A stretch of 64,000 nt of DNA from Escherichia coli (GCF_044324785.1 NZ_CP172127.1), one strand, 5' to 3'; shown: positions 1,842-14,610, counted from the stretch's first letter. The notes: generated by a model not told the origin, from the sequence alone. A program made the numbers and translations.

Positions 1842-4274
1842 ATGACCACACTGAAACTGGATACGCTCAGCGACCGCATTAAAGCGCACAAAAATGCGCT
1901 GGTGCATATTGTGAAACCGCCGGTCTGTACCGAGCGCGCGCAGCACTATACTGAGATGTATCAACAACATCTCGATAAGCCGATCCCGGTACGTCGCGCG
2001 CTGGCGCTGGCGCATCACCTGGCGAATCGCACCATCTGGATCAAGCACGATGAGTTGATCATTGGCAACCAGGCAAGCGAAGTTCGCGCCGCGCCGATCT
2101 TCCCGGAATATACCGTCTCCTGGATCGAAAAAGAGATTGATGATCTGGCGGATCGTCCGGGTGCTGGTTTTGCGGTGAGCGAAGAGAACAAACGTGTTCT
2201 GCATGAAGTGTGCCCTTGGTGGCGCGGTCAGACGGTACAGGATCGCTGCTACGGCATGTTTACCGATGAGCAAAAAGGTCTGCTGGCGACCGGAATCATT
2301 AAAGCGGAAGGCAATATGACCTCCGGCGATGCGCACCTGGCGGTGAATTTCCCGCTACTGCTGGAAAAAGGTCTTGATGGTCTGCGCGAGAAAGTAGCGG
2401 AACGTCGCTCGCGCATCAACCTGACGGTGCTGGAAGATTTGCACGGCGAGCAGTTCCTGAAAGCGATTGATATCGTGCTGGTGGCAGTCAGTGAACACAT
2501 TGAACGTTTCGCTGCCCTGGCGCGTGAAATGGCAGCCACTGAAACCCGCGAAAGCCGTCGCGATGAACTGCTGGCGATAGCAGAAAACTGCGATCTTATC
2601 GCCCACCAGCCGCCGCAGACTTTCTGGCAGGCGCTGCAACTGTGCTACTTCATCCAGTTGATTTTGCAGATCGAATCTAACGGTCACTCGGTATCGTTTG
2701 GTCGTATGGACCAGTATCTCTACCCGTACTATCGCCGCGACGTTGAACTGAACCAGACACTGGATCGTGAACACGCCATCGAGATGCTGCATAGCTGCTG
2801 GTTAAAATTGCTGGAAGTGAACAAAATCCGCTCCGGCTCGCACTCGAAAGCCTCTGCGGGAAGTCCGCTGTATCAGAACGTCACCATTGGCGGACAAAAT
2901 CTGGTTGATGGTCAACCAATGGACGCGGTGAATCCACTCTCTTACGCGATCCTCGAATCCTGCGGTCGCCTGCGTTCTACTCAGCCTAACCTCAGCGTGC
3001 GTTACCATGCAGGAATGAGCAACGATTTCCTCGACGCCTGCGTACAGGTGATCCGCTGCGGCTTCGGGATGCCGGCGTTCAACAACGACGAAATCGTCAT
3101 CCCGGAATTTATTAAACTCGGTATTGAACCGCAGGACGCTTACGACTATGCAGCGATTGGTTGTATCGAAACCGCCGTCGGTGGCAAATGGGGCTATCGC
3201 TGTACCGGCATGAGCTTTATCAACTTCGCCCGCGTGATGCTGGCGGCGCTGGAAGGCGGGCGTGATGCCACCAGCGGCAAAGTGTTCCTGCCACAAGAAA
3301 AAGCGTTGTCAGCGGGTAACTTCAACAACTTCGATGAAGTAATGGACGCATGGGATACGCAAATCCGTTACTACACGCGTAAATCAATCGAAATCGAATA
3401 TGTCGTCGACACCATGCTGGAAGAGAACGTACACGATATTCTCTGCTCGGCGCTGGTGGATGACTGTATTGAGCGAGCGAAAAGTATCAAGCAAGGCGGC
3501 GCTAAATATGACTGGGTTTCTGGCCTGCAGGTCGGCATTGCTAACCTCGGCAACAGCCTGGCGGCAGTGAAGAAACTGGTATTTGAACAGGGCGCGATTG
3601 GTCAGCAACAGCTGGCTGCCGCACTGGCGGATGACTTCGACGGCCTGACTCACGAGCAGCTGCGTCAGCGGCTGATTAACGGTGCGCCTAAGTACGGCAA
3701 CGACGATGATACTGTCGATACGCTGCTGGCTCGCGCTTATCAGACCTATATCGACGAACTAAAACAGTACCATAACCCGCGCTATGGTCGTGGTCCGGTT
3801 GGCGGCAATTATTACGCGGGTACGTCATCTATCTCCGCTAACGTACCCTTTGGCGCGCAGACGATGGCAACGCCGGACGGGCGTAAAGCCCACACCCCGC
3901 TGGCAGAAGGCGCTAGTCCGGCCTCCGGTACTGATCATCTTGGCCCTACTGCGGTCATTGGCTCAGTGGGTAAACTGCCTACGGCCGCGATTCTCGGCGG
4001 CGTGTTGCTCAACCAGAAACTGAATCCGGCAACGCTGGAGAACGAATCTGACAAGCAGAAACTGATGATCCTGCTACGCACCTTCTTTGAAGTGCATAAA
4101 GGCTGGCATATTCAGTACAACATCGTTTCCCGCGAAACGCTGCTGGAAGCGAAAAAACATCCGGATCAGTACCGCGATCTGGTAGTGCGTGTCGCGGGTT
4201 ATTCCGCCTTCTTCACTGCGCTCTCTCCAGACGCACAGGACGATATCATCGCCCGTACTGAACATATGCTGTAA
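1842..4274 (+). CDS. ybiW: glycyl radical enzyme, pyruvate formate-lyase family (PflF/YbiW)
   Basis: 810 aa; C-terminal glycyl radical motif RVAGYSAFF; immediately downstream of its activase. Confidence 0.9.
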
Positions 4275-4419
4275 CTCTTCCGCCCGGCGGCCACCGTCGC
4301 CGGGCCAAATCATTCACATCATCAATTTCATCCTCGCTTTCATTCGAAATATAATTTGTGCTCTGCGTCACATTGTTATTACACTGTTACGGTTTCATTT
4401 TCGAGCCAGGAGCACACCT

Positions 4420-5235
4420 ATGAGCGTAAAAGTTATCGTCACAGACATGGACGGTACTTTTCTTAACGACGCCAAAACGTACAACCAACCACGTTTTATG
4501 GCGCAATATCAGGAACTGAAAAAGCGCGGCATTAAGTTCGTTGTCGCCAGCGGTAATCAGTATTACCAGCTTATTTCGTTCTTTCCTGAGCTAAAGGATG
4601 AGATCTCTTTTGTCGCGGAAAACGGCGCACTGGTTTACGAACATGGCAAGCAACTGTTCCACGGCGAACTGACCCGACATGAATCGCGGATTGTTATTGG
4701 CGAGTTGCTAAAAGATAAGCAACTCAATTTTGTCGCCTGCGGTCTGCAAAGTGCATATGTCAGCGAAAACGCCCCCGAAGCATTCGTCGCACTGATGGCA
4801 AAACACTACCATCGCCTGAAACCTGTAAAAGATTATCAGGAGATTGACGACGTACTGTTCAAGTTTTCGCTCAACCTGCCGGATGAACAAATCCCGTTAG
4901 TGATCGACAAACTGCACGTAGCGCTCGACGGCATTATGAAGCCGGTTACCAGTGGTTTTGGCTTTATCGACCTGATTATTCCTGGCCTGCATAAAGCGAA
5001 TGGTATTTCGCGGTTACTGAAACGCTGGGATCTGTCACCGCAAAATGTGGTAGCGATTGGCGACAGCGGTAACGATGCGGAGATGCTGAAAATGGCGCGT
5101 TATTCCTTTGCGATGGGCAATGCTGCGGAAAACATTAAACAAATCGCCCGTTACGCTACCGATGATAATAATCATGAAGGCGCGCTGAATGTGATTCAGG
5201 CGGTGCTGGATAACACATCCCCTTTTAACAGCTGA
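4420..5235 (+). CDS. ybiV: HAD-family sugar phosphatase
   Basis: Internal ATG at 4420 of ORF 4189..5235; N-terminal HAD motif VTDMDGTFL; 271 aa. Confidence 0.9.
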
Positions 5236-5242
5236 CCTCTCT

Positions 5243-5278
5243 ACCGGAGCTATGCGCTCCGGTTTTCCCTTCTTTTTA
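5243..5278 (+). terminator. rho-independent terminator after ybiV
   Basis: Hairpin ccggagctatgcgctccgg followed by a T-rich tract. Confidence 0.55.
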
Positions 5279-5386
5279 CATCCTTTACATCACATCAAAT
5301 CATTAAACTTCCATTAACTTATTTATAACTTATATTGTCACATGCAAATCAGCATAGTTTCGAATGAAAGTTAATGCGAGGTGGTT

Positions 5387-6652
5387 ATGGCTTCTACTTT
5401 TACCAGCGACACATTGCCTGCCGATCACAAAGCAGCTATCCGTCAGATGAAGCACGCGCTGCGGGCGCAGCTTGGCGACGTCCAGCAGATCTTTAATCAG
5501 CTAAGCGATGACATTGCCACGCGAGTGGCTGAAATCAACGCACTCAAAGCACAGGGCGATGCCGTCTGGCCGGTGCTGTCTTATGCCGATATCAAAGCAG
5601 GTCATGTTACTGCAGAGCAGCGCGAACAAATTAAACGTCGCGGTTGTGCGGTGATAAAAGGCCATTTCCCCCGCGAACAAGCGCTAGGCTGGGATCAGTC
5701 GATGCTGGACTATCTGGACCGCAACCGCTTTGACGAGGTCTACAAAGGCCCCGGCGATAATTTCTTCGGGACACTCAGCGCTTCACGTCCCGAGATTTAC
5801 CCCATCTACTGGTCGCAGGCGCAAATGCAGGCCCGCCAGAGTGAAGAAATGGCGAATGTGCAGTCGTTTCTCAATCGTCTGTGGACATTTGAAAGTGATG
5901 GAAAGCAATGGTTTAACCCGGATGTGAGCGTCATCTACCCTGACCGTATCCGCCGCCGTCCGCCCGGAACGACCTCCAAAGGTCTTGGAGCGCATACCGA
6001 CTCCGGGGCGCTGGAACGCTGGCTGCTTCCAGCGTATCAGCACGTTTTCGCCAACGTCTTTAATGGCAATCTGGCGAAATACGATCCCTGGCATGCGGCA
6101 CATCGTACGGAAGTTGAAGAGTACACGGTGGACAACACCACCAAATGTTCCGTGTTTCGGACATTCCAGGGCTGGACAGCGCTCTCTGATATGCTGCCTG
6201 GTCAGGGGTTGCTGCACGTCGTGCCCATTCCTGAAGCCATGGCGTACGTACTGTTACGTCCGCTGCTTGATGATGTGCCGGAGGATGAACTGTGCGGCGT
6301 AGCGCCCGGAAGAGTGTTGCCGGTATCAGAGCAATGGCATCCACTGTTAATTGAGGCGTTAACCAGCATTCCAAAACTCGAGGCCGGAGACTCCGTCTGG
6401 TGGCACTGCGACGTCATCCATTCCGTTGCCCCCGTTGAAAATCAACAGGGTTGGGGCAACGTGATGTACATTCCTGCGGCACCGATGTGCGAGAAAAATC
6501 TTGCCTACGCGCACAAGGTGAAGGCCGCACTGGAAAAAGGCGCATCGCCGGGCGACTTCCCGCGCGAGGACTATGAAACAAACTGGGAAGGACGCTTTAC
6601 GCTTGCCGACCTCAACATTCACGGTAAGCGAGCGTTGGGAATCGACAGCTGA
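5387..6652 (+). CDS. ybiU: DUF1479-family protein YbiU
   Basis: ORF 5381..6652; ATG at 5387 has GAGG upstream; 421 aa recognised as YbiU. Confidence 0.85.
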   Translation: MASTFTSDTLPADHKAAIRQMKHALRAQLGDVQQIFNQLSDDIATRVAEINALKAQGDAVWPVLSYADIKAGHVTAEQREQIKRRGCAVIKGHFPREQALGWDQSMLDYLDRNRFDEVYKGPGDNFFGTLSASRPEIYPIYWSQAQMQARQSEEMANVQSFLNRLWTFESDGKQWFNPDVSVIYPDRIRRRPPGTTSKGLGAHTDSGALERWLLPAYQHVFANVFNGNLAKYDPWHAAHRTEVEEYTVDNTTKCSVFRTFQGWTALSDMLPGQGLLHVVPIPEAMAYVLLRPLLDDVPEDELCGVAPGRVLPVSEQWHPLLIEALTSIPKLEAGDSVWWHCDVIHSVAPVENQQGWGNVMYIPAAPMCEKNLAYAHKVKAALEKGASPGDFPREDYETNWEGRFTLADLNIHGKRALGIDS

Positions 6653-7722
6653 GTGTCGTACAGCCCTTCCCGTTCCACGGCGGTGTTCCCTTTTCCTGGG
6701 CGAACCCGCCGCACTGACTCCCGCACCGCCAATCGTCCGTGCAGCAGCAGCGAGCCCACCGGAGCATCCGGGCGAATCAGCCGCTGTTGCAACATTTGCA
6801 CCGCTTCATTGCCTAGCTCATCGCGTGGCACATGCACAGCCGTCAGGGGAACATCCTCGATTGCCGCAAGGTTAAAGCCGTCGATACTCATCACCGAGAC
6901 ATCCTGTGGTACGCGCAGACCACGACGATGTAGCGCATTTACCGTTCCCGCCGCCATAAAATCCCCGCCGACCAGAAACGCCGTCGGCAACGTCTTGCCA
7001 TTGGCGGCATCCAGCCACGCTCCGACCTTTTCTTCCGCTTCTTTAGCGCTAAAACTGCTGATATTCAGCAAATGACGGTCATGGTGAAAGGCCAGATTAT
7101 GCTGACGCCATGATTCTTTAATCCCTGCAAACCGCTGCTCCATAGTGTAGCGGCGCAGGCACATCACATTCATCACCTCCCGGTGACCCATTTCAAACAG
7201 ATAGCGGGCGGCGAACGCGCCAATTAACCGATGGTCCGGCGCAATCGCCGGGAGGCGCATTCGTTCATCACGGCAGTTGATCAGCACACAAGGCTTAGCG
7301 AGATCGGCGGCCAGATCATGGATGTGCGGATCGTCAATCCCCAGCAGGATCGCCGCCTGCGTATCTGCTTCATTCATCCGCGAGAGAAATAGCGCGGGAT
7401 CGCTGTCAAACTCCTCCAGCGCGCAGTAACGCAGCCGCACTTCATGCGGCGATAACGCTTTGCTGATGCTCTGGATCACACGGTAATAAAAGATATCAGA
7501 TCGTTGGTCAAAAGCGCGTTGCGGCGCGAAAATAATCAGGTTGTTCAGCAACATACGACCTGCTGCCATGCCATCCATCACGCCCAACTCACGCGCGCAG
7601 GCCAGCACCTGTTCGCGAGCGCGTGCACTGGTATTCGCTTTGCCAGCCAGCACCCGCGAAACCGTACTCGGCGATAGCCCGGTACGTGCGGCGATATCGG
7701 CGATTTTCAGCTTCTTGTCCAT
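6619..7722 (-). CDS. LacI-family transcriptional regulator (accessory locus)
   Basis: ORF 6619..7800 (-); likely start MDKKLKIADIAARTGLSPSTVSRVL (HTH at N-terminus) at 7722; periplasmic-binding-protein-like core; 3-prime end overlaps ybiU by 34 bp. Confidence 0.8.
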   Translation of the reverse strand: MDKKLKIADIAARTGLSPSTVSRVLAGKANTSARAREQVLACARELGVMDGMAAGRMLLNNLIIFAPQRAFDQRSDIFYYRVIQSISKALSPHEVRLRYCALEEFDSDPALFLSRMNEADTQAAILLGIDDPHIHDLAADLAKPCVLINCRDERMRLPAIAPDHRLIGAFAARYLFEMGHREVMNVMCLRRYTMEQRFAGIKESWRQHNLAFHHDRHLLNISSFSAKEAEEKVGAWLDAANGKTLPTAFLVGGDFMAAGTVNALHRRGLRVPQDVSVMSIDGFNLAAIEDVPLTAVHVPRDELGNEAVQMLQQRLIRPDAPVGSLLLHGRLAVRESVRRVRPGKGNTAVEREGLYDTQLSIPNARLP

Positions 7723-8016
7723 TTTGTGATCTGCCTCTAATTCGGAAATGACAGAATTTTCATGAGCAAAAAAGCCCATTCTGTCTGGCATTAAATCCAT
7801 TTCAGTAATGTATATCAGTCACTCATGGAAAAACGTGCACAAAACCCGCTTTCTTTCGCTTTTAGGGTCTCTTACTGTGAATTGGTAGAACAACTTCCAT
7901 ACAAAAATAATGGAAAAACGAACAACAAAGACTTTATTTATCAAAAAGTTAAAAGTGGTGTGACAACTCCATTCTGACGTTGCCGCACAAACCCTATACC
8001 ATTCTGTGGAGTGCAT

Positions 8017-9318
8017 ATGAGTCAGGGTATCAATAACGATATGACTGCCAGTAAACCGCGCCATATCGTCAAAAATCTGCGTTGGTGGATACTGGTCCTT
8101 TTTTTGCTCGGTGTTACTGTCAACTACATCACGCGTAACTCGCTGGGTATTCTCGCCCCCGAACTGAAAAGCAGCCTGGGGATTACCACCGAACAATATT
8201 CCTGGATTGTAGGTGCTTTCCAGCTCGCCTATACCCTATTCCAACCGTTGTGCGGATGGCTGATTGACGTCATTGGCCTCAAACTGGGCTTTATGATCTG
8301 CGCGGGACTGTGGGCACTGGCCTGTCTGATGCATGCGGGGGCGGGAAACTGGGTACATCTGGCGCTGTTGCGCTTCTTTATGGGCGGTGCGGAAGCCGCA
8401 GCAACCCCAGCAAACGCCAAAACCATCGGTGAATGGTTTCCAAAATCAGAACGCCCGATCGCCGCAGGCTGGGCAGGCGTCGGTTTTTCCATCGGTGCCA
8501 TGCTGGCCCCACCGATTATCTATTTTGCCCACGCTTCATTCGGCTGGCAGGGTGCATTTATGTTCACTGGCATCCTGGCGATGCTGTGGGTCGTGCTGTG
8601 GTGGGCGTTCTATCACAGCCCGGATAAGCATCCTAACCTCAGCAAAGCCGAGCTGGACTTTATTCGCCAGGATAACGAAGCGCCCCCGGTCAAGTTACCC
8701 TTTCTGACCGCACTGAAAACCGTGGGCAAAAATAAACGCTTTTACGGTATCGCTATCCCGGCCTTTATGGCAGAACCGGCGTGGGCGGTGATGAGTTTCT
8801 GGGTTCCGCTATACCTGTCCAAAACCTATGGCATGGACCTGAAGCAGATCGCATTATTCGCCTGGTTGCCGTTCCTCGCCGCTGATCTTGGCAGTATTGC
8901 CAGCGGCTATCTGACCAAACTTTACACCCGCCTGTTTGGGCTGAGTCGTGTGAACTCCGTTGTCGCATCATCGGTCAGTGGCGCATTCCTGATGGTTTCG
9001 CTGGCGGTGATGGCCTTTACCAATAACCCGTATATCGCCATCGTCCTTATCTCCATCGGCGGCTTCGGTCACCAGATCATCTCCTGCATGCTAAGCGCAC
9101 TGGTGGTGGAATCCTTCGACAAAGGTCAGATGGCCACTGTTAACGGCATGCGCGGTTCTGCCGCGTGGATCGCAAGTTTCCTGTTCTCCCTGATAATCGG
9201 GGTTACCGCAGACAAAATCGGCTTTAACCCCCTGTTTATCGCCATGGGCTTCTTTGACCTGATTGGCGCTTTCTTCCTGGTCACCTTTATTGCTGAACGT
9301 CGCGCAAAACGCGCCTGA
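8017..9318 (+). CDS. MFS transporter, anion:cation symporter family, ExuT (hexuronate transporter)-like
   Basis: ORF 8011..9318; ATG at 8017 has GGAG 5 nt upstream; N-terminal region aligns by eye with ExuT (LRWW..TRN...QYSWI...GEWFPKSER...IGAMLAPPI). Confidence 0.8.
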   Translation: MSQGINNDMTASKPRHIVKNLRWWILVLFLLGVTVNYITRNSLGILAPELKSSLGITTEQYSWIVGAFQLAYTLFQPLCGWLIDVIGLKLGFMICAGLWALACLMHAGAGNWVHLALLRFFMGGAEAAATPANAKTIGEWFPKSERPIAAGWAGVGFSIGAMLAPPIIYFAHASFGWQGAFMFTGILAMLWVVLWWAFYHSPDKHPNLSKAELDFIRQDNEAPPVKLPFLTALKTVGKNKRFYGIAIPAFMAEPAWAVMSFWVPLYLSKTYGMDLKQIALFAWLPFLAADLGSIASGYLTKLYTRLFGLSRVNSVVASSVSGAFLMVSLAVMAFTNNPYIAIVLISIGGFGHQIISCMLSALVVESFDKGQMATVNGMRGSAAWIASFLFSLIIGVTADKIGFNPLFIAMGFFDLIGAFFLVTFIAERRAKRA

Positions 9319-9332
9319 GAGTGGATGTAAAC

Positions 9333-11696
9333 ATGAAAACGCTGAAAAACTGGACCCTGCACAAACAGTCTGCCCACCACGTTGAACTGCTGGTCGATGG
9401 CCAGCATATCCTGTGCCTGTACGTGCTGGAAGAAAATCTGTTCCGCGTGCTGTTAAAACGCAAAGGCGAGCTGGCGCTGGATCGCACCTGGAGCATTGCT
9501 CCGGCGCAGGATGTGCCATGGGAAGGGCGCAGCCGCGAAGATCTCAGCGGCTTTAGCCTGCCCGCGTGGACATTGATCCAGCACGACGACACCGTGGTTA
9601 TCGCCACCGAGTCACTGCGTGTCACCGTTCACCAGCCGCTGTGGCTGGAGTGGCACTATCGTAACAACGAAGGCGAATGGCTGCCGTTGGTGAATGACCG
9701 CCCGACCAGCGCTTATCTGCTGAATGCCCACGGCGATGGCGTGGCACACTATCAGAGCCGTCGTAAAGATGAACGCTTTTATGGCCTCGGAGATAAAGCC
9801 GGCGACCTGCAACGCAACGGTAAACGTTACGAGATGCGTAACCTCGACGCGATGGGCTACAACGCCGTTAGTACTGACCCGCTGTACAAACACATTCCAT
9901 TCACCATCACCCGCCGCGATGACATTAGCTTCGGCCTGTTTTATGACAACCTCAGCAGCTGCTGGCTGGATCTGGGCAACGAGATCGACAACTACCACAC
10001 CGCCTATCGCCGCTGGCAGGCGGAAGCGGGTGATATCGACTACTACCTGTTTACCGGCGAACGCGTACTTGATATCACCAAAGCCTTCGTACGCCTGACC
10101 GGAAAAACCCTGTTCGGACCGAAATGGAGCCTGGGCTACAGCGGTTCAACTATGCACTACACCGATGCGCCGGACGCACAAAATCAGTTGATGAACTTTA
10201 TCCGCCTGTGTGAAGAACATGCAATTCCCTGCGATTCGTTCCAGCTCTCTTCCGGTTATACCTCAATTAACGGCAAACGCTATGTGTTCAACTGGAACTA
10301 CGACAAAGTGCCGCAGCCGAAAGTGATGAGCCAGGCATTTCACAATGCTGGTTTGCACCTGGCCGCCAATATCAAGCCGTGCCTGTTGCAGGATCACCCA
10401 CGCTATAACGAAGTGGCAGAAAGAGGACTGTTCATCCGTGATTCAGAAACAGATGAACCAGAACGTTCCAGCTTCTGGGATGACGAAGGTTCTAACCTCG
10501 ACTTTACTAATCCGCAGACCATCCAGTGGTGGCAGGAAGGCGTGACCACACAGCTTCTGGAGATGGGTATCGACTCCACCTGGAACGACAACAACGAATT
10601 CGAAGTATGGGACGGTGAAGCACGCTGTCACGGCTTTGGTCAGACGATCGCGATCAAACATATTCGCCCAGTGATGCCACTGCTGATGATGCGAGCCTCG
10701 ATGGAAGCCCAGCAGCGTTTCGCTCCGGAAAAACGTCCGTACTTGATCTCCCGCTCCGGCTGCGCGGGAATGCAGCGCTACGTGCAGACCTGGAGTGGCG
10801 ATAACCGCACTAGCTGGGACACTCTGCGCTACAACACCCGCATGGGTCTGGGGATGAGCCTCTCCGGGTTGTATAACCTCGGTCACGACGTCGGCGGTTT
10901 CTCCGGTGATAAACCGGACCCGGAACTGTTTGTACGCTGGGTACAAAACGGCGTGATGCATCCGCGCTTTACGATTCACTCATGGAACGATGACCATACC
11001 GTAAACGAACCGTGGATGTATCCGGGCGTCACTCCGGCGATCCGCAGCGCTATTGAGTTGCGCTATCGCCTGCTGCCCTACTTTTATACCCTGATGTGGC
11101 AGGCATACGCCGATGATGAACCAATGCTACGTCCGACTTTCCTTGACCACGAGCACGACGTTCAGACTTTTGAAGAGTGTGATGACTTCCTGCTTGGTCG
11201 CGATATTTTGGTTGCCAGCGTCGTAGAGCAAGGCGAGCGCCAGCGCCGTGTATGGCTGCCAGATAACGAAACTGGCTGGTACGATTTCTACAACGGCGAA
11301 TGGTTCAGTGGCGGTCAGTGGATCACCCTCGACGCACCGCTGGAGAAACTGCCGCTGATGGTGCGTGCCGGGGCTGGTCTACCGCTCAGCAAACGCATCA
11401 CCTATGTGAGCGCAGAACAAGACGATACCCGCGAACTGAAACTGTTCCCGCTGAAAGGTGTGGGCACAACGTCCGGCCTGCTGTTTGAAGACGATGGCGA
11501 AAGCTGGGGCTACCAAACTGGTAATGCGCTTTGGGTGGAATGGGAAATGGTTTGCGATGGGGCGACCATCAACCTGAAAGTCAACGCGCGCGGGGATTAT
11601 CGTCCTGCATGGAGTGCACTGAAAGTGTCATTACCATTGGAAGAAAAACGCACGCTGCTGGTCAATGGTGTTGAAGGGAGTGAATGGATGCGTTAA
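9333..11696 (+). CDS. glycoside hydrolase family 31 (alpha-glycosidase), specificity unknown
   Basis: ORF 9321..11696 (GTG at 9321 or ATG at 9333); GH31 motifs GIDSTWNDNNE (nucleophile region) and RSGCAGMQRYVQTWSGDNRTSW (acid/base region). Confidence 0.8.
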   Translation: MKTLKNWTLHKQSAHHVELLVDGQHILCLYVLEENLFRVLLKRKGELALDRTWSIAPAQDVPWEGRSREDLSGFSLPAWTLIQHDDTVVIATESLRVTVHQPLWLEWHYRNNEGEWLPLVNDRPTSAYLLNAHGDGVAHYQSRRKDERFYGLGDKAGDLQRNGKRYEMRNLDAMGYNAVSTDPLYKHIPFTITRRDDISFGLFYDNLSSCWLDLGNEIDNYHTAYRRWQAEAGDIDYYLFTGERVLDITKAFVRLTGKTLFGPKWSLGYSGSTMHYTDAPDAQNQLMNFIRLCEEHAIPCDSFQLSSGYTSINGKRYVFNWNYDKVPQPKVMSQAFHNAGLHLAANIKPCLLQDHPRYNEVAERGLFIRDSETDEPERSSFWDDEGSNLDFTNPQTIQWWQEGVTTQLLEMGIDSTWNDNNEFEVWDGEARCHGFGQTIAIKHIRPVMPLLMMRASMEAQQRFAPEKRPYLISRSGCAGMQRYVQTWSGDNRTSWDTLRYNTRMGLGMSLSGLYNLGHDVGGFSGDKPDPELFVRWVQNGVMHPRFTIHSWNDDHTVNEPWMYPGVTPAIRSAIELRYRLLPYFYTLMWQAYADDEPMLRPTFLDHEHDVQTFEECDDFLLGRDILVASVVEQGERQRRVWLPDNETGWYDFYNGEWFSGGQWITLDAPLEKLPLMVRAGAGLPLSKRITYVSAEQDDTRELKLFPLKGVGTTSGLLFEDDGESWGYQTGNALWVEWEMVCDGATINLKVNARGDYRPAWSALKVSLPLEEKRTLLVNGVEGSEWMR

Positions 11697-11875
11697 ATCA
11701 TTACCGGGGCCGGGAGGCGACTGCACCTTACCCGGTCCAGCCATCGAATCCTTTACCTCAGTATTTCACGCTGCAGGAAGGCAGCAAACCTGTAAACCCC
11801 GGGAGCTTAAATAAGTAAGTGACCGGGGTGAACAGGTGAAGCCAATGCATCTGCCGCATGAAAGACGGCGGGGAA

Positions 11876-13471
11876 TTAACCGTCGATCCCTTTACTACGC
11901 AGGTAATCTTCGTAATTACCGCTAAAGTCAATAACGCGTTCCGGGGTGATTTCCAGAATGCGGGTCGCCAGGGAGCTTACGAACTCACGGTCGTGTGAAA
12001 CAAAGATCAGCGTGCCCTGATACAGTTCCAGCGCCATGTTCAGCGACTCGATGGATTCCATATCCAGGTGGTTGGTCGGTTCGTCCATGATCAGAATGTT
12101 CGGCTTCTGCATCATTAACTTACCAAACAGCATCCGCCCTTTTTCCCCACCGGAAAGCACTTTCGCTGGTTTTTTGATGTCGTCCTGGCTGAACAGCAAA
12201 CGACCGAGAATGCTGCGTACCGCCTGCTCGTCATCGCCTTCCTGCTTCCACTGGCTCATCCATTCGAACACGGTCAGATCATTTTCAAACTCATATTCGT
12301 GGTCCTGAGCATAGTAACCAATGCGCGCGTTTTCAGACCATTTTACGGTGCCGCTGTCCGGTTGCAGATCGCCCACCAGCGTTTTCAGCAGCGTTGATTT
12401 ACCGACGCCGTTGGTACCCAGTACCGCAAGTTTTTCACCGACCTCCAGCAGCAGGTTGAGATTTTTAAACAGTGGACCGTTATCAAACCCTTTGGTCAGA
12501 CCTTCCACTTCCAGCGCGTTACGGAACAGTTTCTTATCCTGTTCAAAACGGATGAACGGGTTCTGACGGCTGGAGGCTTTCACCTCTTCCAGTTTGATTT
12601 TATCAATCTGGCGCGCGCGCGAAGTTGCCTGGCGAGATTTCGAGGCGTTGGCGCTAAAGCGGCTAACGAAAGATTGCAGCTCAGCAATCTGCGCTTTCTT
12701 CTTGGCGTTATCAGCCAGCAGACGTTCACGCGCCTGGGTCGCCGCCGTCATGTACTCATCGTAGTTGCCCGGATAAACGCGCAGCTCGCCGTAATCCAGA
12801 TCCGCCATATGGGTACAAACCATGTTAAGGAAGTGACGGTCGTGCGAGATGATGATCATGGTGCTGTCACGCTCGTTCAGCACCTGTTCCAGCCAACGAA
12901 TGGTGTCGATGTCGAGGTTGTTGGTCGGTTCGTCGAGCAGGAGAATGTCTGGATCAGCAAAAAGCGCCTGTGCCAGCAGCACACGCAGCTTCCAGCCAGG
13001 AGCAACTTCACTCATCGGGCCGTAGTGCTGTTCCACTGGAATTCCCACGCCAAGCAACAATTCACCGGCGCGAGCTTCCGCAGAGTAACCGTCCATTTCG
13101 CCGTATTTCACTTCCAGATCGGCCACTTTATAGCCGTCTTCTTCACTCATTTCCGGCAAAGCATAGATGCGGTCACGCTCCTGCTTCACTTCCCACAACT
13201 CTTTATGCCCCATGATCACCGTATCCAGCACAGTGAACTCTTCAAAGGCAAACTGATCCTGACGCAGCTTACCAATGCGCTCGTTGGGATCGAGGGAAAC
13301 GTTACCCAACGTCGGCTCTAAGTCGCCGCCGAGGATCTTCATAAAGGTGGATTTACCACTACCGTTCGCGCCAATCAGGCCGTAACGGTTGCCGCCGCCA
13401 AATTTGACGGAAATGTTTTCAAACAACGGCTTACTGCCGAACTGCATGGTGACGTTACTGGAAACTAACAC
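11876..13471 (-). CDS. ybiT: ABC-F family ATPase (tandem ABC domains) YbiT
   Basis: 531 aa; two Walker A motifs ([18 protein letters not shown]) and ABC signature motifs. Confidence 0.9.
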
Positions 13472-13689
13472 AGGCGTATCCTGAAAAGAGATATGACAAA
13501 CCGCGCATTATGCCATAAGTCTGAAAGAAGATCCTGCTCCTCGCTTAAGGTCTACACTCAAGCCAAAGGCAAAAAATGTGATTTCGTACACATCTGATTT
13601 CACTGTGAGCTGGAATGAACTTATAATGCGCTTCCAATACTCTAATATTCTCAACCCAATGGCCTGCCAGGCACAAAATCTCGCTTAAC

Positions 13690-14610
13690 ATGAATATGAA
13701 ATTGAAAACATTATTCGCAGCGGCCTTCGCTGTTGTCGGCTTTTGCAGTACCGCCTCTGCGGTAACTTATCCTCTGCCAACCGACGGGAGTCGCCTGGTT
13801 GGTCAGAATCAGGTGATCACCATTCCTGAAGGTAACACTCAGCCGCTGGAGTATTTTGCCGCCGAGTACCAGATGGGGCTTTCCAATATGATGGAAGCGA
13901 ACCCCGGTGTGGATACCTTCCTGCCGAAAGGCGGTACTGTACTGAACATTCCGCAGCAGCTGATCCTGCCGGATACCGTTCATGAAGGCATCGTCATTAA
14001 CAGTGCAGAGATGCGTCTGTATTACTATCCGAAAGGAACCAACACTGTTATCGTGCTGCCGATCGGCATTGGTCAGTTAGGCAAAGACACGCCTATCAAC
14101 TGGACCACCAAAGTTGAGCGTAAAAAAGCAGGCCCGACCTGGACGCCGACCGCCAAAATGCACGCAGAGTACCGCGCTGCGGGCGAACCGCTTCCGGCTG
14201 TCGTTCCGGCAGGTCCGGATAACCCGATGGGTCTGTATGCACTCTACATCGGTCGCCTGTACGCTATCCATGGCACCAACGCCAACTTCGGTATCGGCCT
14301 GCGTGTAAGTCATGGCTGTGTGCGTCTGCGTAACGAAGACATTAAATTCCTGTTCGAGAAAGTGCCTGTCGGTACTCGCGTGCAGTTTATTGATGAGCCG
14401 GTGAAAGCGACTACCGAACCAGACGGCAGCCGTTACATTGAAGTCCATAACCCGCTGTCTACCACCGAAGCCCAGTTTGAAGGTCAGGAAATTGTGCCAA
14501 TTACCCTGACGAAGAGCGTGCAGACAGTGACCGGTCAGCCAGATGTTGATCAGGTTGTTCTGGATGAAGCGATCAAAAATCGTTCCGGGATGCCGGTTCG
14601 TCTGAATTAA
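13690..14610 (+). CDS. ldtB: L,D-transpeptidase LdtB (YbiS)
   Basis: 306 aa; signal peptide; catalytic motif [20 protein letters not shown]. Confidence 0.9.

Follow-up and report, generated by a model that had tools for sequence, protein, structure and literature searches.

Escherichia coli K-12 has several described systems in which a cytoplasmic glycosidase works together with a cation-coupled permease. The uidR-uidABC (gus) locus is a hexuronide-type module whose GH2 beta-glucuronidase and proton-coupled GPH-family permease, UidB, feed glucuronate to UxaC/UxuAB, under the control of the TetR-family regulator UidR together with UxuR. The yicJ-yicI (alpha-xyloside) and yihOPQ (sulfoquinovose) loci use GPH-family permeases and hydrolyse their substrates in the cytoplasm with GH31 enzymes. 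Here, we analysed a stretch of 64,000 nucleotides of E. coli DNA (GCF_044324785.1, NZ_CP172127.1; hereafter the window), which contains a three-gene locus between the core genes ybiU and ybiT. The locus encodes a LacI/GalR-family regulator, an ExuT-like permease of the major facilitator superfamily (MFS) and a GH31 hydrolase. We propose, with a probability of about 0.6 for the statement as a whole, that it is an ancestral operon lost by most E. coli, and that it serves the uptake and hydrolysis of alpha-glycosides containing glucuronate.

The gene coordinates are given alike by the open reading frame (ORF) listing of the window and by RefSeq, as annotated on the chromosome of E. coli strain S10, which is 99.6% identical. 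According to the RefSeq annotation, the left flanking core gene ybiU (DUF1479/Gig2-like) occupies positions 5387-6652 on the plus strand, and the right flanking core gene ybiT, encoding an ABC-F ATPase, positions 11876-13471 on the minus strand. The coding gap of 5,223 bp between them is filled by three ORFs: the regulator gene (6619-7779, minus strand; 386 aa in RefSeq), identified from the ORF list, RefSeq, NCBIfam and Pfam on orthologues; the MFS gene (8017-9318, plus strand; 433 aa), assigned to the anion:cation symporter (ACS) group and as an ExuT paralogue by TIGR00893 and its identity to ExuT; and the gene of a GH31 retaining alpha-glycosidase (9333-11696, plus strand; 787 aa), assigned by NCBIfam, Pfam, structure-database matches and alignments. 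All three are full length when compared with 80 or more orthologues. The GH31 gene starts 14 nt past the MFS stop codon, so the two are probably co-transcribed. The regulator gene is divergent from this pair, and its stop codon lies inside ybiU, giving a convergent overlap of exactly 34 bp (6619-6652). A preliminary description of the window, made from the sequence alone, had named this gene content, the divergent orientation, the 34-bp overlap and a distance of about 5.2 kb between ybiU and ybiT; the gene map agrees on every count, down to the base. The architecture is that of an ordinary regulator-transporter-glycosidase catabolic operon, annotated only generically so far.

Compared with uidABC, the locus is proposed to work in a similar way: a proton-coupled permease and a glycosidase in the cytoplasm would deliver glucuronate to UxaC/UxuAB, and the combination of a local repressor with UxuR is mirrored here by a local LacI-type regulator and an ExuR/UxuR-like box. 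However, the enzyme is an alpha-specific retaining GH31 rather than a GH2 beta-glucuronidase, an ACS-family MFS protein resembling ExuT takes the place of the GPH-family UidB, and the regulator belongs to the LacI rather than the TetR family. With the exuT/uxaCA/uxuAB regulon of K-12, the locus shares a permease that is a full-length ExuT paralogue and a promoter palindrome comparable to the uxaC-exuT and exuR boxes, and in Erwiniaceae the MFS-GH31 pair adjoins uxuA-uxaC-uxuR. Unlike that regulon, it has a glycosidase and its own LacI-family regulator, and in Enterobacteriaceae it encodes no isomerase, reductase or dehydratase. It resembles yicJ-yicI and yihOPQ in joining a GH31 enzyme to a cation-coupled sugar permease for cytoplasmic hydrolysis, but its GH31 is of a different subfamily and its permease is of the ExuT-like ACS type.

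The evolutionary origin of the locus was examined in a scan of species representatives, which yielded at least 80 loci; the fact that Escherichia fergusonii, Escherichia albertii and Salmonella enterica subsp. enterica are not listed there is no evidence of absence. The full order ybiU-lacI-MFS-GH31-ybiT was found in 40 of the 80 loci listed, and lacI-MFS-GH31-ybiT in 17 more. Genera with the full order include Enterobacter, Klebsiella, Raoultella, Citrobacter, Kluyvera, Kosakonia, Leclercia, Pluralibacter, Trabulsiella, Pseudocitrobacter and Siccibacter, and it is also present in Salmonella diarizonae. The closest GH31 proteins outside E. coli, those of Enterobacter kobei (89% identical) and Klebsiella pneumoniae (86%), are encoded at the very site that the locus has in the window, in the order ybiY-ybiW-ybiV-ybiU-lacI-MFS-GH31-ybiT-ldtB. 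The convergent lacI/ybiU overlap is kept across those genera at 31-82 bp and is an old feature rather than an insertion scar; in the 34-bp overlap class, which includes the window, the LacI C-terminus reads IP(S/N)ARLP. The terminal residues of YbiU and YbiT give no indication of direction, since genera with the locus have termini of the K-12 type as well as of the window type. Nucleotide identity to other genera is 70-85% for the three genes, 76-88% for ybiW, ybiU, ybiT and ldtB, and 70-80% for ybiV, these ranges being overlapping, and in no genus is the locus nearer to E. coli than its flanks are. The locus has a GC content of 54.3% and the remainder of the window one of 52.2%; GC at third codon positions (GC3) is 0.61-0.65 versus 0.54-0.64 in the flanks, values that are not anomalous. 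No mobility genes were found among the three ORFs (ORF list, RefSeq, NCBIfam), no direct repeats were seen at the junctions by inspection, without a formal search, and no tRNA gene is present at the locus in the RefSeq annotation of S10, no dedicated tRNA scan having been run. None of the usual marks of a genomic island (mobility genes, tRNA or repeats, deviating composition, a foreign signal) was found. The synteny, the conserved overlap, the core-like divergence, the normal composition and the lack of signs of mobility together imply that the K-12 state is derived, by a deletion, and that the locus is very probably an ancestral Enterobacteriaceae operon lost by most E. coli lineages, including K-12.

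The preliminary description had instead suggested an insertion flush against ybiU; in this reading, the locus is a horizontally acquired accessory island that a minority of E. coli carry. Such an origin would agree with the fact that K-12 and about 89% of the complete E. coli genomes lack the locus. In addition, E. coli lacI and MFS are somewhat nearer to their Kluyvera and Pseudocitrobacter counterparts than to those of Citrobacter, with the promoter-region haplotype in common, a hint of non-vertical history that speaks against our interpretation; ancient recombination within the locus is possible because of this resemblance. However, an insertion does not account for the identical position and orientation across many genera, the ybiU overlap included, or for a divergence from every other genus that is as large as that of the core flanks. 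No integrase, insertion sequence (IS), tRNA or direct repeat was noted, and the comparison of composition with the flanking genes, which the same description had proposed as a check, gave nothing anomalous in GC or GC3. Moreover, between genomes with and without the locus the flanks retain 98-99% identity as far as the ends of the genes, and the empty site is no clean excision, but holds 257 bp of unrelated sequence containing repetitive extragenic palindromic (REP) elements. Insertion is largely refuted by the synteny, and we regard it as highly unlikely. The direction of the event is corrected by the ancestral reading: what appears as an island when referred to K-12 is an old enterobacterial operon lost from the reference strain. 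This correction is useful but unsurprising, and it illustrates that presence/absence calls centred on K-12 can mislead.

Within E. coli, the whole locus was found in 575 of 5,426 complete genomes (about 10.6%), always on the chromosome and at this site. Two haplotype groups were distinguished, at least 99% identical to the window (487 genomes) and about 98% identical (89 genomes), a spread that looks like core-like diversity. One carrier is labelled O15:H18 ST69, a sequence type that we take to belong to phylogroup D. The exact GH31 protein of the window is an E. coli protein found on 249 contigs; Shigella sonnei is also represented in its 90% cluster. Genomes of the K-12 type lack the three genes, and in them ybiU lies next to ybiT. 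In pairwise BLAST, homology of the window to these genomes ends at position 6639 and restarts at 11883, the intervening segment of 5,243 bp (6640-11882) being exchanged for a 257-bp spacer that consists mostly of REP-type repeats and a hairpin. These counts and junctions confirm what the preliminary description had said of the absence from K-12 and of the accessory status of the locus within E. coli.

A sensitive BLAST comparison of the 257-bp spacer with the locus gave nothing beyond chance matches 9-15 nt long; no trace of the deleted genes is detectable. Three types of empty site were observed, namely the K-12 spacer, the K-12 spacer with IS621, and a form without ybiU. In this last form, the right-hand portion of the spacer shows 86% identity to that of K-12, with which it has the right junction (11883) in common. 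No megablast match to ybiU was obtained in about 1,100 of the 5,426 complete genomes (about 20%), and in strain KE41 (L004, 8797-8997) ybiV is followed directly by ybiT. In 220 further records, ybiU was matched at just 60-80% identity; these may represent a divergent allele. The IS110-family element IS621 lies inside the K-12-type spacer in many E. coli, e.g., 2010C_3902 (L003, 2254-3767), and was seen in several of 30 sampled E. coli match rows. IS621 prefers REP sequences, and its presence in a REP spacer fits this preference. After the deletion, REP elements, and in some strains IS621, came to occupy the site. The locus itself is decaying or rearranged in some E. coli: the Z0117EC0056 copy has an IS1A insertion, in Ec-U18 the GH31 gene is split and its parts are annotated as two proteins, and strain IH5 carries three partial copies, of which one adjoins a phage capsid gene.

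As for the function, TIGR00893 is the NCBIfam model that matches the permease best, aligned end to end (E = 4.5e-79, 266 bits), although the score falls short of the 395 required for the subfamily. The permease shares 43% identity with K-12 ExuT over its whole length (414 aa). This full-length similarity places it in the ACS-type organic-anion permease group (ExuT/DgoT/GudP type). It is 46% identical to an MFS protein that adjoins a distant member of the same GH31 subfamily, and in the orthologous loci the MFS gene is always followed by the GH31 gene. We also considered whether the permease could be the ExuT orthologue, but the identity is only 43%, and E. coli as well as the other genera with the locus keep a separate exuT; it is therefore not an ExuT orthologue.

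The hydrolase has the GH31 domain set PF13802, PF01055, PF21365 and PF17137, which it shares with glucosidase II/GAA-type enzymes (PDB 5f0e, 5nn3) and with PDB 6jr6, a GH31 entry from F. johnsoniae that is presumably a dextranase. Its nucleophile D419 (WNDNNE) and acid/base D490 (WSGDN) align with the glucosidase II motifs and are invariant in 83 orthologues, and the WxD and WxGDN motifs, an arginine (R474) and the DVGGF motif are likewise conserved. The domain set and the two catalytic aspartates place the enzyme in GH31. However, the match to the glucosidase II/GAA-type enzymes reaches only about 1e-80, with an identity that looks like roughly a third (as judged from the alignment, not computed), and the enzyme differs from them in being bacterial, paired with an anion transporter and apparently cytoplasmic, the N-terminus having no look of a signal peptide by eye. 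The best NCBIfam match was alpha-glucosidase MalA (E = 7e-91, 305 bits versus a cut-off of 800), followed by alpha-xylosidase (230 versus 606), and the score against PRK10426, which NCBI names 'alpha-glucosidase' and which we take to be the YihQ-type model, was 138 versus a cut-off of 553. The enzyme falls outside the MalA, YicI and YihQ equivalogs.

Instead of the canonical residues, the active site carries a signature of M274, S306-S307, K348 and N420 (D-N-N at 419-421), which is invariant in 83 orthologues. Among 105 full-length best matches, about 90 are of this subfamily type, and nearly all of them have the signature together with the nucleophile and the acid/base, with S or G at 306, whereas the canonical alpha-glucosidase-type matches in the same search have Y/F, D, D and M at the signature positions. 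The enzyme belongs to a large, sharply defined subfamily. In comparison with human GAA, W376 (Trp in alpha-glucosidases, Tyr or Phe in bacterial matches) is replaced by Met274, D404 (Asp in alpha-glucosidases) by Ser306, or Gly in some members, the 'xDP' aspartate on beta4 (likewise Asp in alpha-glucosidases) by Lys348, and M519 (Met in alpha-glucosidases) by Asn420. In human GAA, D404 hydrogen-bonds a bound iminosugar in the -1 pocket (PMC5653652). The loss of two carboxylates and the gain of a lysine would be expected for a pocket that accommodates a carboxylate.

Among the relatives, an association of the genes with hexuronate genes was observed. In all 8 Erwiniaceae loci, lacI is missing and the MFS-GH31 pair is divergent from uxuA; uxuR was found in 7 of them and uxaC in 6 (the one with neither, L053, ends short upstream), and a TTGGTTGACCAA box lies between the pair and uxuA in each of the 8. 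More distantly, a 47%-identical subfamily member is encoded between dctM and dctP of a tripartite ATP-independent periplasmic (TRAP) transporter, which is of the organic-anion type, in a cluster with glucuronate isomerase (uxaC), a fructuronate-reductase-like dehydrogenase (uxuB-like), manD, 2-keto-3-deoxygluconate (KDG) kinase (kdgK) and eda. A 46%-identical member adjoins uxaC, and another, 42% identical, is encoded behind eda-kdgK in an operon whose genes overlap. A 48%-identical member occurs in an arrangement of an ExuT-like MFS gene, GH31 and a porin gene (L102), the porin being a further likeness to uidABC.

In the window, a single promoter-like site precedes the MFS gene, a predicted sigma-70 promoter for the MFS-GH31 operon (7882-7911, plus strand; TTGGTA, 18 nt, AATAAT), found by a consensus scan in a region where promoter-like sites are no more numerous than the shuffled expectation. 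Its -35 element is overlapped by an ExuR/UxuR-type operator-like palindrome, GAATTGGTAGAACAACTT (7879-7896; consensus scan), which is the sole match in the 64 kb with at most 3 mismatches to the ExuR/UxuR core AATTGGTATACCAATT and is as close to the consensus as are the boxes of the K-12 uxaC-exuT and exuR regions. The same box is found unchanged in Kluyvera and Pseudocitrobacter, although not in Salmonella diarizonae. Boxes with at most 5 mismatches were present upstream of the MFS orthologues in 28 of 74 regions, versus 2.3% of shuffles, in loci that are phylogenetically related, and they are near-perfect in Serratia and Hafnia, e.g., GAATTGGTATACCAACTT. A repeat search also revealed an inverted repeat across the -10 hexamer, TTCCAT-N9-ATGGAA (7895-7915), which is a candidate operator of the local LacI-family repressor. 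This repeat is kept in the Kluyvera locus (L029) and partly in that of Salmonella diarizonae (L086).

The operator, the Erwiniaceae synteny, the distant gene contexts and the active-site signature tie the MFS-GH31 pair to hexuronate catabolism. The preliminary description regarded the locus as a self-contained module; this is doubtful, because the ExuR/UxuR-type operator and the linkage to hexuronate genes elsewhere indicate that the module probably feeds the core hexuronate pathway. From its context and sequence, the substrate probably contains a hexuronate. We propose that the ExuT-like, proton-coupled permease would import a small anionic alpha-glycoside with a hexuronic acid, most likely D-glucuronate, and that the cytoplasmic GH31 retaining alpha-glycosidase would cleave it, the freed glucuronate entering the core UxaC/UxuB/UxuA (Ashwell) pathway. 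The divergent LacI-family regulator would probably repress the operon and sense the specific substrate, and ExuR/UxuR would probably also repress it, at the box over the -35 element, sensing pathway flux. The glucuronate would be either the glycone, the enzyme then being an alpha-glucuronidase, or the aglycone, to which a neutral alpha-sugar would be attached.

An ordinary module for neutral alpha-glucosides or alpha-xylosides, of the maltose, isomaltose, nigerose or isoprimeverose type, is suggested by the best NCBIfam matches, alpha-glucosidase MalA and then alpha-xylosidase, and by the nearest solved structures, glucosidase II alpha and 6jr6; in addition, some sources name the orthologues alpha-glucosidase. 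However, both family scores are far under their cut-offs, the transporter is of the organic-anion (ExuT/DgoT) group and not of a neutral-sugar MFS group, the pocket Asp residues are changed to Ser and Lys throughout the subfamily, and the subfamily is repeatedly linked to uxaC, to uxuA or manD, and to kdgK, eda and TRAP transporters. We therefore consider a neutral substrate unlikely. The anion-type transporter would suit a second sulfoquinovosidase-type system, in which a GH31 enzyme acts on an anionic 6-sulfo-glucoside brought in by an anion-type MFS importer, and to our knowledge the sulfoquinovosidases (YihQ) are the only GH31 enzymes with an anionic glycone. But the identity to YihQ is 28%, in the catalytic domain alone, and the PRK10426 score is far below its cut-off. 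In YihQ, R301, W304 and Y508 form the sulfonate triad. R301 aligns with R316 of our enzyme, although glucosidase II also has that arginine, while W304 and Y508 align with F319 and F523, on which ground the assignment was rejected. Moreover, no sulfoglycolysis genes are nearby, the linked genes being hexuronate genes. We consider this alternative very improbable.

Several points weigh against the hexuronate reading itself. The closest solved structures are neutral alpha-glucosidases (glucosidase II, E = 1e-79, versus 3e-36 for YicI and 2e-31 for YihQ), the active-site reading comes from a sequence alignment only, and we know of no GH31 enzyme with a uronic-acid glycone. The E. coli box has 4 mismatches to the 18-nt ExuR/UxuR consensus assumed here, and many Enterobacter and Klebsiella loci have weak boxes only, with 6-8 mismatches; the enrichment of boxes is no clean statistic, since the loci are phylogenetically related. 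Of the 9 distant contexts, 4 are uninformative because of short contigs. Finally, a literature search on the locus, its genes and the RefSeq protein accessions found no paper.

If the hexuronate reading is correct, it would mean a new GH31 specificity and an extended hexuronate regulon. The reading provides a specific, testable hypothesis, that of alpha-linked glucuronate-containing glycosides as substrates, for an uncharacterised and very widespread GH31 subfamily, which is spread across Enterobacterales and has many distant relatives elsewhere. A further, tentative step, for which we see rather less than even odds, is that the subfamily would be the first GH31 clade for a uronic-acid glycone, a retaining cytoplasmic alpha-glucuronidase and, as such, the 'alpha-glucuronide' counterpart of uidABC. 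The known alpha-glucuronidase families are GH67, GH115 and GH4; no relationship in sequence to any of them was noticed, no search aimed at it having been made. Candidate substrates for such an enzyme are the xylan-derived aldobiuronate 4-O-methyl-GlcA-alpha-1,2-Xyl, alpha-glucuronosyl-glycerol and the alpha-glucuronosyl-inositol head groups of plant lipids. Enterobacter asburiae JDR-1 reportedly (Bi, Rice and Preston, in 2009) takes up 4-O-methylglucuronosyl-alpha-1,2-xylose and hydrolyses it intracellularly, by genes said to be unknown. The locus is present in E. asburiae INSAq146 (L016), which is not JDR-1, so this is a lead and not evidence. An alpha-glucuronidase would identify the genes behind the fermentation of methylglucuronoxylose by JDR-1, and a glucuronate-containing substrate could explain the use of acid-resistant xylan aldouronates by plant-associated enterobacteria. 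It would also imply a metabolic difference, a strain-variable nutrient niche, between E. coli lineages with the locus, including the ST69-labelled genome, and those without it.

The regulator has an HTH_LacI domain and a periplasmic-binding-protein-like effector domain, which place it in the LacI/GalR family, and its orthologues carry PF00356, PF00532 and PF13377. It aligns over its full length to the RbsR, CytR and PurR models (E = 1e-32 to 1e-27, within a range of 1e-32 to 1e-20 for LacI-family NCBIfam models). It does not belong to any of the named LacI groups (RbsR, CytR, PurR, GntR, IdnR, MalI and others), the best score being 113 bits versus a cut-off of 382. Because all equivalog scores are below the cut-offs, its effector is not readable from homology. 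An alternative start at 7722 (MDKKLKIADIAARTG..., 367 aa) would put the helix-turn-helix (HTH) at the usual N-terminal position.

When positions 6619-9318 of the window were compared with the corresponding loci L012, L029, L049, L015, L022 and L086, the regulator, the promoter region and the permease were more like those of Kluyvera, Pseudocitrobacter and S. diarizonae than like those of Citrobacter or Enterobacter, and the flanks follow the expected phylogeny. The amino acid identity of LacI is 83-89% to this group and 73-76% to Citrobacter werkmanii and Enterobacter, with an intermediate value of about 80% to C. amalonaticus. Two haplotypes of regulator and promoter seem to circulate in the family. 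The lacI-MFS intergenic region also contains a block at about 7824-7846 (ATGGAAAAACGTGCACAAAACCCGCT) with the palindrome GTGCAC at 7835-7840; within it, the consensus motifs ATGA.AA and TTGCA.AAA are well conserved across genera and the bases between them vary. This block could be part of the regulator's own promoter/operator or a CRP-like site.

At the other end of the locus, where GH31 and ybiT converge, an imperfect inverted repeat of 22 nt lies between the two genes (11788-11837; repeat search) and is possibly a bidirectional terminator hairpin, although it received no intrinsic-terminator score in the promoter/terminator scan. An Rfam scan of positions 5000-14000 matched no family. In several genera, an extra 0.8-3.2 kb lies between GH31 and ybiT (L015, L022, L034, L036), where genes have been gained in some lineages. 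Upstream of ybiU, positions 1842-5235 contain ybiW (a glycyl-radical enzyme gene) and ybiV (a sugar phosphatase gene), and in KE41 ybiY and fsa lie further upstream; this block accompanies the locus in most genera. YbiW/YbiY and FsaA have been linked to anaerobic 1,5-anhydroglucitol-6-phosphate catabolism.

In distant bacteria, the GH31 subfamily also occurs in a different operon (L099, 8001-14416; L100; L103, 8001-14345; L104). There, an AraC-type regulator gene is divergent from GH31, which is followed by the genes of a GDE_C/GH63-like hydrolase, a GPH-type MFS transporter and a PIG-L-family de-N-acetylase, with uxaC next door in one case. This suggests a larger substrate containing N-acetyl-hexosamine and uronic acid.

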